DNA from: a phage
DNA length: 64,000 bases
Assembly (NCBI GenBank): GCA_012813795.1
Contig: GCA_012813795.1_4087.1
Reading direction: 5' to 3' (one strand)
Shown here: positions 1 to 64,000 of the stretch, piece by piece
How positions within the stretch are numbered: the first letter of the stretch is position 1
Layout of the letters: each line of letters starts with the position of its first letter
Position numbers and translations under genes: made by a program
Notes under the pieces: model-generated
Databases searched by the model: none
What the model saw: only the letters and a program-made list of their open reading frames with translations
What the model was told of the DNA's origin: nothing

Positions 1-179
1 CCTAATAGTGTATTGTGTACAATGCTCACAGTAAGGGTATTCAGTGCACTACCAAGCATAAGGTTACACCCAGTGCTCTTATGATTTTTTAGTTCAATTA
101 GCCACGATTGGTCAGAGAGAACCTTTGCGTACTCTAGTTCATTTAGTTCATTGATGTAGTACTTTAGAGCATATGGCAT
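1..179 (-). CDS. hypothetical protein, 5' part only (runs off left edge of window)
   Basis: ATG at 179-177 preceded by AAGGAG (8-nt spacer); frame open to position 1; upstream TTGACA-17-TACTAT promoter. Confidence 0.5.
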   Translation of the reverse strand, partial: MPYALKYYINELNELEYAKVLSDQSWLIELKNHKSTGCNLMLGSALNTLTVSIVHNTLL

Positions 180-204
180 GTACGATTCTCCTTAGATTTC
201 TCAT

Positions 205-233
205 ATAGTACATCAGTACTGAAAGGATGTCAA
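205..233 (-). promoter_or_regulatory. sigma70-like promoter (TTGACA-N17-TACTAT) for leftward gene
   Basis: revcomp of tgtcaa 228-233 and atagta 205-210; spacer contains CAGTACTG. Confidence 0.5.
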
Positions 234-281
234 GGGTTTTCTTTTTTGATTAAATATACTATAATGAATAAAGGAGGAAAT

Positions 282-1439
282 ATGTTACCTTTTGTTAGAA
301 TGTTTGAGTACGGGAATGTAGCACCTATACAGCCAAAAATTATCCAAATGGAGTGTTTAAATGGTGGAGTTTATTTACTATACGATAATGGTGAATTATA
401 TTATCGTGGACGAAATAGCAATGGACTAGCAGGGGATGGGACAAACACATCAAAGAGTAGTTCATGGATTTTGTCTAATACTAATGTTGCAATGCTAAGT
501 AAAGGTGTGAGTAATTATGCTGTTGTTAGGAAAAAAGATAATACATTTTGGATGACAGGATCTTATAATTTATTTGATGTATCTGGGTGGACTAAGTATA
601 GATGGAATGATGTAACCAGTAATTTTAGTGAAGTTAGTTCTAATTTAATTTGTGTATATTGTAATGGTGGTGGTGTGTTAACACTTCGCAGTGATGGAAC
701 GTTGTATGCTTTCGGAACTAGTACAAGTGGTCAACTTGGCTTTGGAAGTGCAACGACAATCAACACATTTACTAAAGTGGCTGAATCAGTATCCACGAAT
801 CCAGATAACGTTATTGCCGTTTTAGGTGGTTGTTATTATATAGATGAAAATAATAGGTTGTTTGCAACTGGTGTTAACACAAACGGACAATTGGGTATTG
901 GTAGCACGGTCAATGCCCTTTCATTTACGTTGGTGAATACAGGGACAACTTATCCAGTGGTTAAGTCTATTATGGCTAATGCAAATGGTGCAAATATATT
1001 GGCCTATAAATCGGACGATTCTGCATATGTAACAGCGGCGAGTGGATATTTGTCGTATATAGGTACGGGTCAAACTTCTGGTATTGGGACTATATTTTCA
1101 AATTATGCTGCATTGAATAACCCAGACAACTTTAATATATTGAAGTTAAGTACATCTCTCGGTAATACAAATGCAATGCTTGTAGTAACCGACAAAGGTG
1201 TATATGCAACTGGTATGAATAATTACTACCAACTCGGAACTGACAACTCAACAAACCAGACTTCATATGTCAAAGTTGTTGGATTACCAGATGATGCTGA
1301 CACAACAACTATAAGATTTCTTGGTGGTACAGCAGAAGGAAGTGCATGTGTCTATCGTGATAAATTATATGTTTCTGGTGTTCTGGGGCAATGGGGGGCA
1401 GGCTACCCAAAATTCACTGAATTGGAAATTCCGTATTAA
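282..1439 (+). CDS. RCC1-like repeat beta-propeller protein, array paralog 1
   Basis: ATG 282 after AAGGAGG; N-terminus MLPFVRMFEYGN; repeated (Y/F)xxGxNxxGQLGxG motifs; track ORF 246 extends upstream through RBS. Confidence 0.75.
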   Translation: MLPFVRMFEYGNVAPIQPKIIQMECLNGGVYLLYDNGELYYRGRNSNGLAGDGTNTSKSSSWILSNTNVAMLSKGVSNYAVVRKKDNTFWMTGSYNLFDVSGWTKYRWNDVTSNFSEVSSNLICVYCNGGGVLTLRSDGTLYAFGTSTSGQLGFGSATTINTFTKVAESVSTNPDNVIAVLGGCYYIDENNRLFATGVNTNGQLGIGSTVNALSFTLVNTGTTYPVVKSIMANANGANILAYKSDDSAYVTAASGYLSYIGTGQTSGIGTIFSNYAALNNPDNFNILKLSTSLGNTNAMLVVTDKGVYATGMNNYYQLGTDNSTNQTSYVKVVGLPDDADTTTIRFLGGTAEGSACVYRDKLYVSGVLGQWGAGYPKFTELEIPY

Positions 1440-1445
1440 TATCAT

Positions 1446-1475
1446 GCCAGTACTTGATACTGGCTTTTTCTTTTT
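1446..1475 (+). terminator. rho-independent terminator hairpin (GCCAGTA-cttga-TACTGGC) + T-run
   Basis: perfect 7-bp inverted repeat followed by tttttcttttt; directly after paralog 1 stop. Confidence 0.7.
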
Positions 1476-1510
1476 GGATTAAATATGATATAATGAATAA
1501 AGGAGGAAAT

Positions 1511-2404
1511 ATGTTACCTTTTGTTAGAATGTTTGAGTACGGGAATGATGTACTACCTGTCATAAATGGTGGTGTACGAACACAATTTACTACATCACCA
1601 GTACCTTCAGCACGAAATAACTTTGGTTATACGTATGATGCGGAAAGTAATATTGCTTATATATTTGGTGGTATACAGAATGCGGTGCAGACAGATAATC
1701 AGTTATGGGGTTTTAATTTAACTACTAGAACGTGGTCACAATTAGCCAATGCACCTGTATCTACATTTGGTAGTGCGTTATGTGCTTATCAGGGAAAAAT
1801 ATATTTGTTTGGTGGTTCAGGTAATGGTAGTAATAATTTTTATGTATATAATATAAGTACAAATACATGGATTCTGAACACTAACAGTATTGGGAAGCCT
1901 AGTCAACTCGCGTATAGTAAGATGATTACTGCTGGGGATAAGATATATTTGTGGGGTTCGCCTACTAATAATTCGTTATACAGTTATACTCCAAGTACTA
2001 ATACATGGTCATCATTAGGTACAAGTGATGGAACAAATAACAATGGAGGTGGTGATATGTGTACGGATGGTACTTACATATATATTACTGGTCAAGGTAC
2101 TAGTACTGCACAAAAATATCATATACAGAGTGCGGTGTGGTCTAACATAGCACCAGTGGGTGGTACTAACCCTAGTAAAATATGTTACAGTACATATGAT
2201 AAAAATATATATGCAGTGTCGTATGGTGCATTAAATTTATTGAGATACGATGCAGAAGAAGACATATGGATTCCCTTAGCGGTTAATACTACTTTGAGTA
2301 GTAGTACTGGTGCGTTATTTGGTTCTAAGAATAGTGCTGAGATATTTTATGTACTTGGTTTTGACAATGGCACTCGTGTTAATACGCAGTATGTTTTTAA
2401 ATAA
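1511..2404 (+). CDS. Kelch-like beta-propeller protein, array paralog 2
   Basis: ATG 1511 after AAAGGAGG; N-terminus MLPFVRMFEYGN; repeated IYLFGG / IYLWG / W-containing blades rather than GQLG. Confidence 0.7.
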   Translation: MLPFVRMFEYGNDVLPVINGGVRTQFTTSPVPSARNNFGYTYDAESNIAYIFGGIQNAVQTDNQLWGFNLTTRTWSQLANAPVSTFGSALCAYQGKIYLFGGSGNGSNNFYVYNISTNTWILNTNSIGKPSQLAYSKMITAGDKIYLWGSPTNNSLYSYTPSTNTWSSLGTSDGTNNNGGGDMCTDGTYIYITGQGTSTAQKYHIQSAVWSNIAPVGGTNPSKICYSTYDKNIYAVSYGALNLLRYDAEEDIWIPLAVNTTLSSSTGALFGSKNSAEIFYVLGFDNGTRVNTQYVFK

Positions 2405-2416
2405 TATGGAGGAATT

Positions 2417-62270: not shown

Positions 62271-62282
62271 TTTGTCCCCTTA

Positions 62283-62426
62283 TTATTTCATACACTCGCG
62301 TAGATCAATCTTTTCAACTGAACCACCAAGTACTAGATAGTAAAAATTAGAATCTTTATTAGCCATATTCAGAAGATCTGCTTTCTGTTGAAGTGTAAAG
62401 CGTGATGTACTGTTACGCACTGGCAT
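62283..62426 (-). CDS. small hypothetical protein (47 aa, below track cutoff)
   Basis: ATG 5 nt after AAGGAG, 2 nt after upstream stop. Confidence 0.45.
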   Translation of the reverse strand: MPVRNSTSRFTLQQKADLLNMANKDSNFYYLVLGGSVEKIDLRECMK

Positions 62427-62428
62427 AG

Positions 62429-62872
62429 TTACTCCTTAAAGTAGATATCACGAATTTGTTTAATCATCTCTAACTCTTGAAGTCCTATCATACCAAAGTC
62501 TTCTTGTATTGTCAACTGCTGAAAGTACATTTCTTCTAAATTATTGTACGGAATCCCAACAAGATTCAAAGGCTCACTTTCCACACGATATATTGTATCT
62601 TCTACGTCATGCTTTTCAATGTGAATACTAAATGTATCTTTTTGAATTCTAAATTTATAAAATGTTTGATTTGATGTAAACAATCCAACTTTAGGATGGA
62701 ATCCCATTTGAATACACAAACAATCTTCATCGTTATATTTCAGGTATATAGTTTTTGACGTTGCCAGTACTTTAGACTTTGGGTAGTAAAAGTCCCCCAT
62801 CTCCTTCTGGCGTAGCCAATCATTATAAACTACCGGATGTTTAACTTTCTTTAATTGGTGCAGTACTGTCAT
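62429..62872 (-). CDS. EExYFQ-motif family protein
   Basis: start moved to Met5 (ATGA overlap); LEEMYFQQLTIQEDFG. Confidence 0.6.
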   Translation of the reverse strand: MTVLHQLKKVKHPVVYNDWLRQKEMGDFYYPKSKVLATSKTIYLKYNDEDCLCIQMGFHPKVGLFTSNQTFYKFRIQKDTFSIHIEKHDVEDTIYRVESEPLNLVGIPYNNLEEMYFQQLTIQEDFGMIGLQELEMIKQIRDIYFKE

Positions 62873-63249
62873 AGTTTTGTCCAATCCAATGAATCAAAAT
62901 CAACAATATCAGGATTCTCAACAACTACAACTCGTGCAGTATGAAGAGTTTCAAAATATCCATTCCACGGTGTACGCACCGGAATTTTTTCATCCCCAAC
63001 TTTTACAAAGAAAGAGAATTCACACGACATTGGATCAAACCATTCTTTTTGTTTGGCTTCTTCGATGATGGTCGCACGTTCGTTACTATATGCATCATCG
63101 AGTTTTTTAAAGAATACCCAATGCTCTTTCAAAGACTGTAAGGCTACAACTGCCTCATCCTTTGATTCCCATTGAACATCCAATGTATTGGTAACTACAT
63201 CTTCAGTTTCAGTGTCACCAGTGGTGTAGTTAACTTCAATTGTGTACAT
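62869..63249 (-). CDS. hypothetical protein
   Basis: start moved to Met26 (GGGAG RBS). Confidence 0.55.
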
Positions 63250-63712
63250 TATATAACTCCCATTTTTCTTTAATATTATGACACACATCAACACATGTGC
63301 ACCAGAAATTAGTTGTAGTTCCACCTAAACCATGAACCAAAGATAGTTGAAACAACGCACTCTCATCCAGTAGTACGTCTCTATATTGTTCGATATAAAG
63401 CTCATCAGAACCACCATAATATTCAATACTAATTTGTCCATCAGTATCAAACGAAAAACTGTATATATCATCAGATGTGACTTTATATGAAGGTGTTTTT
63501 GTATTCATCAAAACTGTCAGAAAGTAACAATCTTCATCGGTTTCAAATATGGGGCTAATACTAAATTCGTTACCATCAAGGTCAAAGTACTGGAATTCTT
63601 TGAAAATTTCATATTCATTAATAGCTCCATAGTACTGTTTTTTCAGTTCACCAATGAAAATTACATTTTTGAGAATTTGTGGCAGTAAACGTTGTAGTTC
63701 ATCAATCTTCAT
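63236..63712 (-). CDS. hypothetical protein (possible EExYFQ-like, ESALFQLS)
   Basis: 158 aa. Confidence 0.55.
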
Positions 63713-63759
63713 TAAAATGTACCTATGAAAAATCCACGCATAACGTGGATTGTTTAATG

Positions 63760-63990
63760 TTATTCTTCCGTATTAAGTACTTTAACTTCAACCAGTCGTA
63801 CTTCATAAAAAGAGTTGTCTTCTTTCCAGTTAATTCCGAACTTGGTAGTCATGAGAGATTCTGCATCACGCTCAAACTTCGCCATTGTATTTGGAATAAT
63901 TTGTTTTGTCAATTTGTCATAACCACTATAGAACATATTATACTCACCTTTCTCAATAATTTCAACAAAATCTTTCTCGTACATATTCAT
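63760..63990 (-). CDS. hypothetical protein
   Basis: 76 aa; start 10 nt from window end. Confidence 0.5.
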
Positions 63991-64000
63991 ACAACCACTC

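Follow-up and report, generated by a model that had tools for sequence, protein, structure and literature searches.

A densely iterated AGTACT palindrome in the genomes of RaK2-like jumbo phages: a putative recognition site on double-stranded DNA

Why a single six-base palindrome, AGTACT, should recur along a whole stretch of phage DNA, inside genes as well as in promoters and terminators, is the question raised by contig GCA_012813795.1_4087.1 (NCBI GenBank assembly GCA_012813795.1), whose entire analysed length of 64,000 nucleotides is called the window here. By its sequence the window belongs to a RaK2-like jumbo myovirus of E. coli, an Asteriusvirus. The closest genome is that of Escherichia phage A4 (ON286972.1), which matches positions 30000-35737 at 97.9% identity, and other parts align with PBECO4 at 70-95% identity. 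The whole A4 genome (355,528 bp, assembled from eight pieces) served as the genome-wide reference. Expected counts were taken from dinucleotide-preserving shuffles, with an order-3 Markov model as the stricter check, and the division of sites into genic and intergenic rests on our own calls of open reading frames (ORFs). The 2.9 million viral contigs of IMG/VR were searched by two pattern scans, and a 100 kb sample of E. coli K-12 was used for comparison.

The hexamer occurs 178 times between positions 1 and 64000 (counted without regard to strand) against 19.0 +/- 4.4 expected, the highest count in any shuffle being 30, and it ranks first among the 4096 hexamers for over-representation in the window. 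It remains in excess under the order-3 Markov model (178 against 73 +/- 8.5), even though that model already absorbs part of the motif. The octamer CAGTACTG accounts for 41 of these sites, where 0.93 +/- 0.87 would be expected. Across A4, AGTACT is the top 6-mer (922 copies against 121 expected, 7.6x) and CAGTACTG the top 8-mer (224 against 3.8, 60x). An earlier note on this DNA had called AGTACT over-represented, and after counting the ratio of observed to expected stands at about nine in the shuffles, far from 1. E. coli K-12 is itself poor in the hexamer (6 copies in 100 kb against 23 expected), so that the phage, at ~2.6-2.8 sites/kb against ~0.06/kb, is ~45x denser in AGTACT. Phage T4 shows no enrichment (12 copies against 17 expected) and has no copy of CAGTACTG.

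The sites are symmetric beyond their six-base core. C at position -1 and G at position +6 are each found at ~48% of sites, with T-T further out, giving the dyad-symmetric extended consensus TTCAGTACTGAA; both the C and the G flank are present in only 224 of the 922 A4 sites. The flank preference is alike in coding and intergenic copies, and the information content returns to background beyond +/-3 bases from the core, unlike in REP or MITE repeat units. Longer paralogous units among the copies are limited to a set of array terminators and to early promoters. Three perfect 12-bp palindromes that had been placed at 49850-49861, 51644-51655 and 51764-51775 are all present by sequence match, on neither strand in particular, and each equals TTCAGTACTGAA.

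Most sites lie within genes. In the window 148 of 178 (84%) fall inside ORFs, spread over the three reading frames, and the other 30 lie between genes, in keeping with the earlier description of the motif as frequent within coding sequence; in A4 the genic share is 759 of 922 (~82%), again in all three frames. In frame 0, AGT-ACT encodes 376 of the 726 Ser-Thr pairs of A4 (52%), where codon usage predicts 107 (15%); frame 1 (xAG-TAC-Txx) holds 125 sites against 24 expected from codon usage, and frame 2 (xxA-GTA-CTx) 253 against 52. Synonymous codon choice is thus shifted in every frame, which argues that the pressure acts on the DNA and not on the proteins, and an explanation from tRNA content or codon usage was rejected because the excess exceeds codon usage in all three frames. 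Of the Ser codons 33% are AGT, a share inflated by the motif, and the tRNA genes of the window include one for a tRNA-Ser whose unusual anticodon, ACT, reads AGT (52972-53063, minus strand) and one for a tRNA-Thr with anticodon TGT (51131-51204, minus strand).

Site density rises where protein coding constrains the DNA least. It is 4.3/kb in intergenic against 2.4/kb in coding DNA and 3.1/kb in genes shorter than 300 bp against 1.7/kb in genes longer than 3 kb, while staying flat along the length of a gene, and approximately twofold peaks lie 40-80 bp ahead of the start codon and 0-40 bp past the stop codon. Every 10-kb bin of A4 is enriched, by 3-23x, with the highest values at 1-30 kb, an early region made up of tiny ORFs.

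The sites are also better conserved than their surroundings. In 23.3 kb aligned to PBECO4 at 82.7% identity, 48 of 71 sites are intact where hexamers within 150 bp predict 33.0 (z = 4.1). Three contigs at ~73% nucleotide identity to A4, probably representing other genera, have kept 13 of 22, 13 of 29 and 11 of 24 sites against 4.5, 5.7 and 4.6 expected, respectively. Overall, sites are conserved 1.5 to 3x better than neighbouring hexamers. These data indicate that selection acts on double-stranded DNA, genome-wide, and not on protein coding, base composition or biased repair. The alternative offered in the earlier note, a compositional signature, does not agree with the dyad-symmetric flanks, the synonymous enrichment in three frames and the conservation above local background. 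We give about an even chance to the reading that selection maintains (C)AGTACT(G) as a densely iterated recognition site on the double-stranded DNA, its reader most likely being a sequence-specific protein that acts as a dimer.

The same measurements bear on the proposal that the enrichment is a passive by-product of codon or amino-acid usage, of duplication, or of a palindrome being left over after a purge of restriction sites. Such a purge has been heavy: GCGC is absent from the window (31 expected) and from the 355 kb of A4 (342 expected). Palindromic hexamers with four G/C bases number 24, and 19 of them occur at most four times in A4, where 36 copies of each are expected; CACGTG, GTGCAC, ACGCGT and TCGCGA escape. 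The array terminators and early promoters are paralogous copies, and the phage tRNA-Ser with anticodon ACT reads AGT. Escape from a purge, however, gives a ratio near 1 and not 8 to 60; the purged GGTACC and CGTACG together could supply ~72 sites and not 800, and repeats explain only tens of sites. The 3.5-5-fold excess beyond codon usage in each of the three frames and the hyper-conservation of the sites complete the case, and we regard the by-product explanation as refuted. Nor does AGTACT behave as a restriction-modification target under avoidance, being 8-fold enriched while most G/C-rich palindromes are purged to zero.

A second possibility is that AGTACT is a target of DNA modification, as the earlier note had also suggested; mismatch repair biased by the modification would create or maintain it, in line with the model of Elhai for the cyanobacterial HIP palindromes. 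Enzymes that methylate the cores of the HIP palindromes are found alongside them (PMC4390886), methyltransferases specific for AGTACT are known in other viruses (PMC7253447), and the phage encodes both a C5 and an N6A methyltransferase. One-base variants of the octamer lie mostly at the outer positions, as in HIP1. The two enzymes fit poorly, however. The N6A enzyme is of the Dam family (PF05869), the C5 enzyme is DNMT3-like, and methylation of the CpG type together with Dam-/Dcm-type protection is reported in the RaK2 paper (PMC3622015); neither CG nor GATC is present in AGTACT. Other phages have homologues of the C5 enzyme at 35-42% identity and show no enrichment (1 site against ~15 expected), and close homologues are found only within the jumbo-phage group, so this enzyme was rejected as the cause. 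No methyltransferase was detected among 33 ORFs scanned from a second, unrelated clade that carries the motif (described below). Repair of deaminated methyl-cytosine should deplete AGTATT/AATACT, which stand at 1.07x expectation. Taking both annotated enzymes and the second clade into account, we consider a modification target unlikely.

The variants of the site speak to repair more generally. Neighbours with one mismatch occur at 1.0-2.6x expectation, with the sole exception of AGGACT/AGTCCT (0.56x), and we read them as not depleted; outer-position variants (NGTACT) reach 1.8-2.6x and inner variants 0.6-1.7x. Such levels would be expected if the variants arise by decay of selected sites, and they speak against repair that works in one direction; biased repair of the very-short-patch type was rejected on this ground and on the 1.07x value of the transition neighbour AGTATT/AATACT.

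The C5 methyltransferase gene of A4 (A4_120; 42647-44545 of L008) falls just outside the window, whose positions 63760-63990 (minus strand) hold a 76-aa ORF. The gene carries a 346-aa intein with a LAGLIDADG homing-endonuclease domain, inserted directly in front of the catalytic cysteine in the Pro-Cys motif. After splicing the enzyme has 286 aa, all of which align with the DNMT3A/B catalytic domain.

Which phages carry the motif narrows the search for whatever reads it. Strong enrichment in the IMG/VR scans is essentially confined to two groups, the jumbo phages and a siphovirus-like clade, and every IMG/VR locus with strong AGTACT enrichment is also without GCGC. Within the first group every RaK2-like genus sampled shows the enrichment (Asteriusvirus, RaK2, CBB and a GAP32-sized contig); RaK2 (345,809 bp), CBB (378,379 bp) and the GAP32-sized contig have AGTACT at 6-14x expectation and GCGC at zero. 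Loci whose capsid protein is at least 91% identical to that of A4 all have AGTACT at 3-6x expectation and no GCGC, and loci with 64-72% capsid identity show neither the enrichment nor the absence of GCGC around their capsid genes.

The second group consists of siphovirus-like elements of ~25-35 kb with 40-44% G+C and a serine recombinase, with members down to 30-48% protein identity, studied here from three sequences (L223, L224 and L113) and about 30 IMG/VR loci. They are integrated in Leclercia genomes, as at positions 1-16000 of L223 (Leclercia tamurae NZ_JAMHKS010000078.1). The motif is enriched 11-18x; the prophage DNA has 4-7 AGTACT/kb and no GCGC, and the adjoining host DNA has normal GCGC and few AGTACT. 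A single flank rule is common to all six sequence sets compared, in that C at -1 stands far above A and T and G is lowest (3-8%). By BLASTP the only genes that A4 and the second clade have in common are those for a lysozyme and a homing-type HNH endonuclease (PHROG 953), and neither a methyltransferase nor a sigma factor was found in a Pfam scan of 33 ORFs of the second clade. Since both clades have the same specificity yet share no candidate gene for its reader, a host protein is at least as likely as a phage protein; the reader is probably not specific to this phage lineage, and a factor conserved in Enterobacterales hosts is slightly favoured. The earlier suggestion of a recognition site for a phage factor therefore holds as far as a specific signal on double-stranded DNA is concerned; its phage origin does not follow, as two unrelated clades share the motif. 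Nothing points to the packaging-related role that was also proposed.

A known host protein offers itself in the nucleoid-occlusion factor SlmA, whose site GTGAGTACTCAC has AGTACT at its core, so that phage sites might recruit it and block division over the phage DNA. SlmA occurs in the host group of both clades. E. coli is itself depleted of AGTACT (the 6 sites in 100 kb given above), and SlmA was the only E. coli protein we could name with an AGTACT-centred palindromic site (PMC3020112). Its requirements, G1, T2, a purine at 3, A4 and G5 (PMC3020112), are nevertheless the opposite of the phage flanks, where the consensus is T-T-C. In every lineage no base is rarer at -1 than G (3-8%), the flank pair G..C occurs at 4 of 922 A4 sites, GTR half-sites beside the motif number 16 against 53 expected, a threefold under-representation, and the degenerate full site GTRAGYRCTYAC is absent from 355 kb. 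Recruitment of SlmA was rejected on these grounds and is strongly disfavoured.

A further view would make AGTACT a hotspot for cleavage, nicking or recombination by a phage or host nuclease, used for example in clamp loading or at the start of recombination-dependent replication, in the manner of Chi or the site-specific nicks of phage T5. The phage has recombination and late-transcription machinery of the T4 type (UvsX, UvsY, Mre11/Rad50-like proteins, a gp55-like sigma factor and a clamp loader) as well as several HNH endonucleases, and the sole non-lysis gene shared with the second clade encodes an HNH endonuclease (PHROG 953). Oriented E. coli Chi sites (GCTGGTGG) also accumulate in A4, with 21 on one strand and 2 on the other against 1.1 expected per strand; the window has three, at 14301-14308, 27408-27415 and 37120-37127, all on the minus strand, against 0.4 expected over both strands. 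Double-strand cutting at ~900 palindromes per genome would, however, fragment the DNA. The shared HNH endonuclease was rejected as a cause of either the AGTACT excess or the GCGC loss, because 24 other viral contigs with homologues at 32-44% identity show neither. A nuclease site seems to us quite improbable.

If AGTACT were primarily a transcription signal, whether an early-promoter element or the operator of a global repressor or phage sigma factor, its intragenic copies would be incidental. Exact consensus sigma-70 promoters are unusually many in these phages, with 12 perfect TTGACA-N16-18-TATAAT sequences in the window (mostly on the minus strand, 14-64 kb) and 31 in A4. The motif is present in 5 of the 12 (42%), and in 7 of 29 when at most one mismatch is allowed, against 9-10% of random 41-bp windows; the earlier claim that most minus-strand promoters contain it went too far. 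Within promoters it takes three preferred places, abutting the -35 on either side, sharing one base with it, or lying one base upstream of the -10, and fixed offsets of -7/-8, -17/-18 and -27/-30 are seen. A4 holds 66 copies of AGTACTTG(A/C) and an early-region promoter of the form AAAAAGTACTTGCA-N17-GTATAAT, its early region is the densest part of the genome (11-23x expectation), and sites peak 40-80 bp upstream of start codons.

The four promoters that the earlier note had placed at 23301, 34885, 54536 and 57754 lie at the right coordinates and each contains the motif. Three of them, all on the minus strand, follow the design TTGAC(A/T)-N9-AGTACT-G-TATAAT: the sigma-70 consensus promoter at 23301-23328 (TTGACA-N9-AGTACT-G-TATAAT, with the motif at 23308-23313 directly upstream of the -10), the promoter at 34885-34912 (motif at 34892-34897) and that at 54536-54563 (TTGACT-N9-AGTACT-G-TATAAT, motif at 54543-54548). 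The fourth, at 57754-57782 (minus strand), reads TTGAC[AGTACT]ATCC[AGTACT]GATATAAT, its spacer being filled by two motifs 10 bp apart. Two more minus-strand promoters show the sharing of bases, one at 34536-34564 in which the motif (34554-34559) shares the last base of the -35 (TTGAC[AGTACT]), and one at 40014-40047 in which two motifs (40042-40047 and 40032-40037) bracket the -35 as [AGTACT]TGAC[AGTACT], with TACAAT as the -10. A further copy, at 55261-55266 and without strand, lies between a -10-like GATATAAT and the first base of a tRNA-Ser gene (55171-55260, minus strand).

These arrangements do not carry over to the genome as a whole. Only ~16% of A4 sites are in promoter-like contexts, and the remainder of the evidence runs against a transcriptional role: 82-84% of sites are intragenic, in all frames and evenly along genes, with 4-7-fold enrichment even in late structural genes; the site is a perfect palindrome without orientation; the second clade has the motif and no sigma-factor homologue was found there by BLASTP or Pfam; and published promoter analyses of the RaK2-like group manage without it (PMC5259590). 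A promoter or operator element would be mostly intergenic at a fixed distance from the -35 or -10, and fixed offsets are seen in the promoter-borne subset only. A primarily transcriptional signal is thus very improbable, and a phage sigma factor, one of the readers suggested in the earlier note, sits badly as the main explanation with a true palindrome that is 84% intragenic in the window. The sequence is freer at promoter spacers, terminator stem-loops and synonymous positions, so that the motif can look built into promoters and terminators without having a transcriptional function there.

Terminators show the same pattern. Between the genes of an array at 264-13555 (plus strand), seven terminators of near-identical design (GCCAGTACT...TACTGGC) have the motif in their stem-loops; the first, at 1446-1464 (plus strand), consists of GCCAGTACTTGATACTGGC followed by a T run, and its paralogous copies lie at 3566-3586, 4781-4799, 5963-5981, 7182-7204, 9698-9716 and 12314-12334 (plus strand). 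Eight had been reported, and seven were found with the motif in the stem-loop; being paralogous copies, they are not independent events. The hairpin noted at 56716-56746 is correct and is an intrinsic terminator of the minus strand, ATGAGTACTG-CTTG-CAGTACTCAT followed by a T run, with the motif in each 10-bp stem arm. The array itself holds some ten paralogues, each 290-450 aa long, which in relatives are annotated as RCC1-like ('regulator of chromosome condensation') or kelch-like.

We return to the preferred reading, a recognition site that a dimeric protein would read, as the symmetry of the sites and the selection on them suggest. The benefit of such sites would grow with their density, which sets phage DNA apart from host DNA (~2.6-2.8 against ~0.06 sites/kb), and the mark may serve the protection, the organisation or the preferential use of phage DNA. 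A genome-wide pressure for sites, limited only by other constraints, would let them pile up at synonymous positions, in promoter spacers, beside the -35 and -10, with which they can have a base in common, in the stem-loops of terminators and between genes, and leave them rarest in long structural genes. Copies in promoters and terminators would on this account be mostly opportunistic; even so, a protein bound at -41/-36, -30/-25 or -19/-14 would be placed to modulate early promoters, and binding at promoter copies could affect them.

Several points weigh against this reading. Binding is deduced solely from symmetry and selection, the candidate readers examined did not fit, and hyper-conservation is also expected under some biased-repair models. 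The idea of a host factor rests on one identified host genus for the second clade, Leclercia, and the search for shared genes was at the level of BLASTP, which a divergent shared phage protein could escape. Sites in the window are on average 359 bp apart; local spacing is Poisson-like (coefficient of variation 0.92-0.94), random in appearance and without a hint of a structural lattice, and helical phasing of close pairs is weak, with small excesses only, at 10-11 and ~20 bp; regular spacing and helical phasing were rejected accordingly. Finally, A4 has two motif-free islands, at 31571-38870 (7.3 kb) and 25255-29750 (4.5 kb), so that complete coverage is evidently not essential. At the genome mean density ~19 and ~12 AGTACT would be expected there; the islands lie directly beside the densest region, also lack GCGC, and may be recent acquisitions. 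LexA boxes formed by site pairs 18 bp apart were likewise rejected, since the excess at 18-23 bp is broad, without a sharp peak, and due to promoter architecture; AGTACTGTATAAT fits only half of a LexA box.

A bolder proposal, tentative and in our judgement rather doubtful, is that in unrelated Enterobacterales phages the same two-part code has arisen by convergence, with CAGTACTG saturating the DNA and GCGC completely removed from it, and that a host- or phage-encoded system uses this code to tell phage DNA from other DNA. In one version a nuclease or silencing machine would be held off or directed by a dimer bound to CAGTACTG, with GCGC as the lethal target. If true, the code would amount to a motif-density self-recognition system for viruses, in principle like Chi and RecBCD.

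The closest known phenomenon, by analogy, is HIP1 of the cyanobacteria. HIP1 (GCGATCGC) and the alternate HIPs are likewise 8-bp palindromes, over-represented 15-300x (PMC4390886, PMC5861425), and CAGTACTG, at 41 copies against 0.93 expected in the window and 224 against 3.8 in A4, also exceeds the 15x genome-wide over-representation by which a palindromic octamer is recognised as HIP1-like. As with HIP1, the sites lie within and between genes, in all frames and independently of protein sequence, are conserved between genomes beyond background, deviate by one base mainly at the outer positions (NGTACT 1.8-2.6x against 0.6-1.7x for inner variants) and have no gene-level function that has been found. 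There are differences too: the motif is in phage genomes and not in cellular chromosomes, its core is AT-rich, it is coupled to the total absence of GCGC, and it is twice as dense between genes, with many copies in promoters and terminators. A methyltransferase link is central to the HIPs, whereas here no enzyme that recognises the core has been linked to the motif, the two annotated ones being Dam-type and DNMT3-like. We found no description of AGTACT or CAGTACTG in the literature on jumbo phages, Asteriusvirus, RaK2 or CBB, and we class it as a HIP-like phenomenon of phage genomes.

Other iterated sites share some of these features. The SlmA-binding sequence GTGAGTACTCAC has the same central hexamer, a 12-bp dyad symmetry and the same host group, but the phage flanks oppose the requirement of SlmA and no site resembling its binding sequence exists in 355 kb. 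The numbers differ as well, with tens of SlmA-binding sites per 4.6 Mb in E. coli and ~900 AGTACT per 0.36 Mb in the phage. Chi, the DNA uptake sequences (USS/DUS) and KOPS are, like AGTACT, short words over-represented genome-wide and accommodated in genes by synonymous choices, and their density-dependent effect lets a protein machine tell kinds of DNA apart; they are asymmetric and strand-biased, whereas AGTACT is a perfect palindrome without direction. The stoperators of cluster A mycobacteriophages resemble it in that one protein-binding site recurs at many places along a phage genome, in some cases overlapping a promoter. They are, however, asymmetric and oriented, lie mostly between genes and number 20-35 per genome, in contrast to ~900 symmetric and mostly intragenic sites.

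To our knowledge the hyper-abundant cyanobacterial palindromes have been studied for 30 years with no agreed function. If the preferred reading holds, the phage is a more tractable case, offering a 350-kb genome that grows on E. coli and ~900 selected sites at 45x the density of the host, and the second clade with the same code narrows the search for the reader. Its discovery could reveal a way of distinguishing phage from host DNA without base modification and explain the co-occurring avoidance of GCGC. The motif can moreover serve as a simple marker for these phages and prophages in metagenomes, and the codon usage that it distorts (AGT-ACT in half of the Ser-Thr pairs, with a tRNA-Ser that reads AGT) matters for annotation and engineering.

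Replacement of one palindrome by another in different lineages, as known from the HIPs, also has a counterpart here. A related jumbo-phage contig whose capsid protein is 66% identical (L030; IMGVR_UViG_3300044959_000303) carries TTTCGAAA as an iterated palindrome in place of AGTACT, which suggests that iterated palindromes are lineage-specific. In the 21 kb around its capsid gene TTCGAA occurs 68 times against 7.1 expected, in all frames, and GCGC is low (3 against 25). Two other loci give hints of further iterated palindromes, CACGTG in L087 (17 against 2.7 expected) and TGGCCA in L043 (19 against 3.3).

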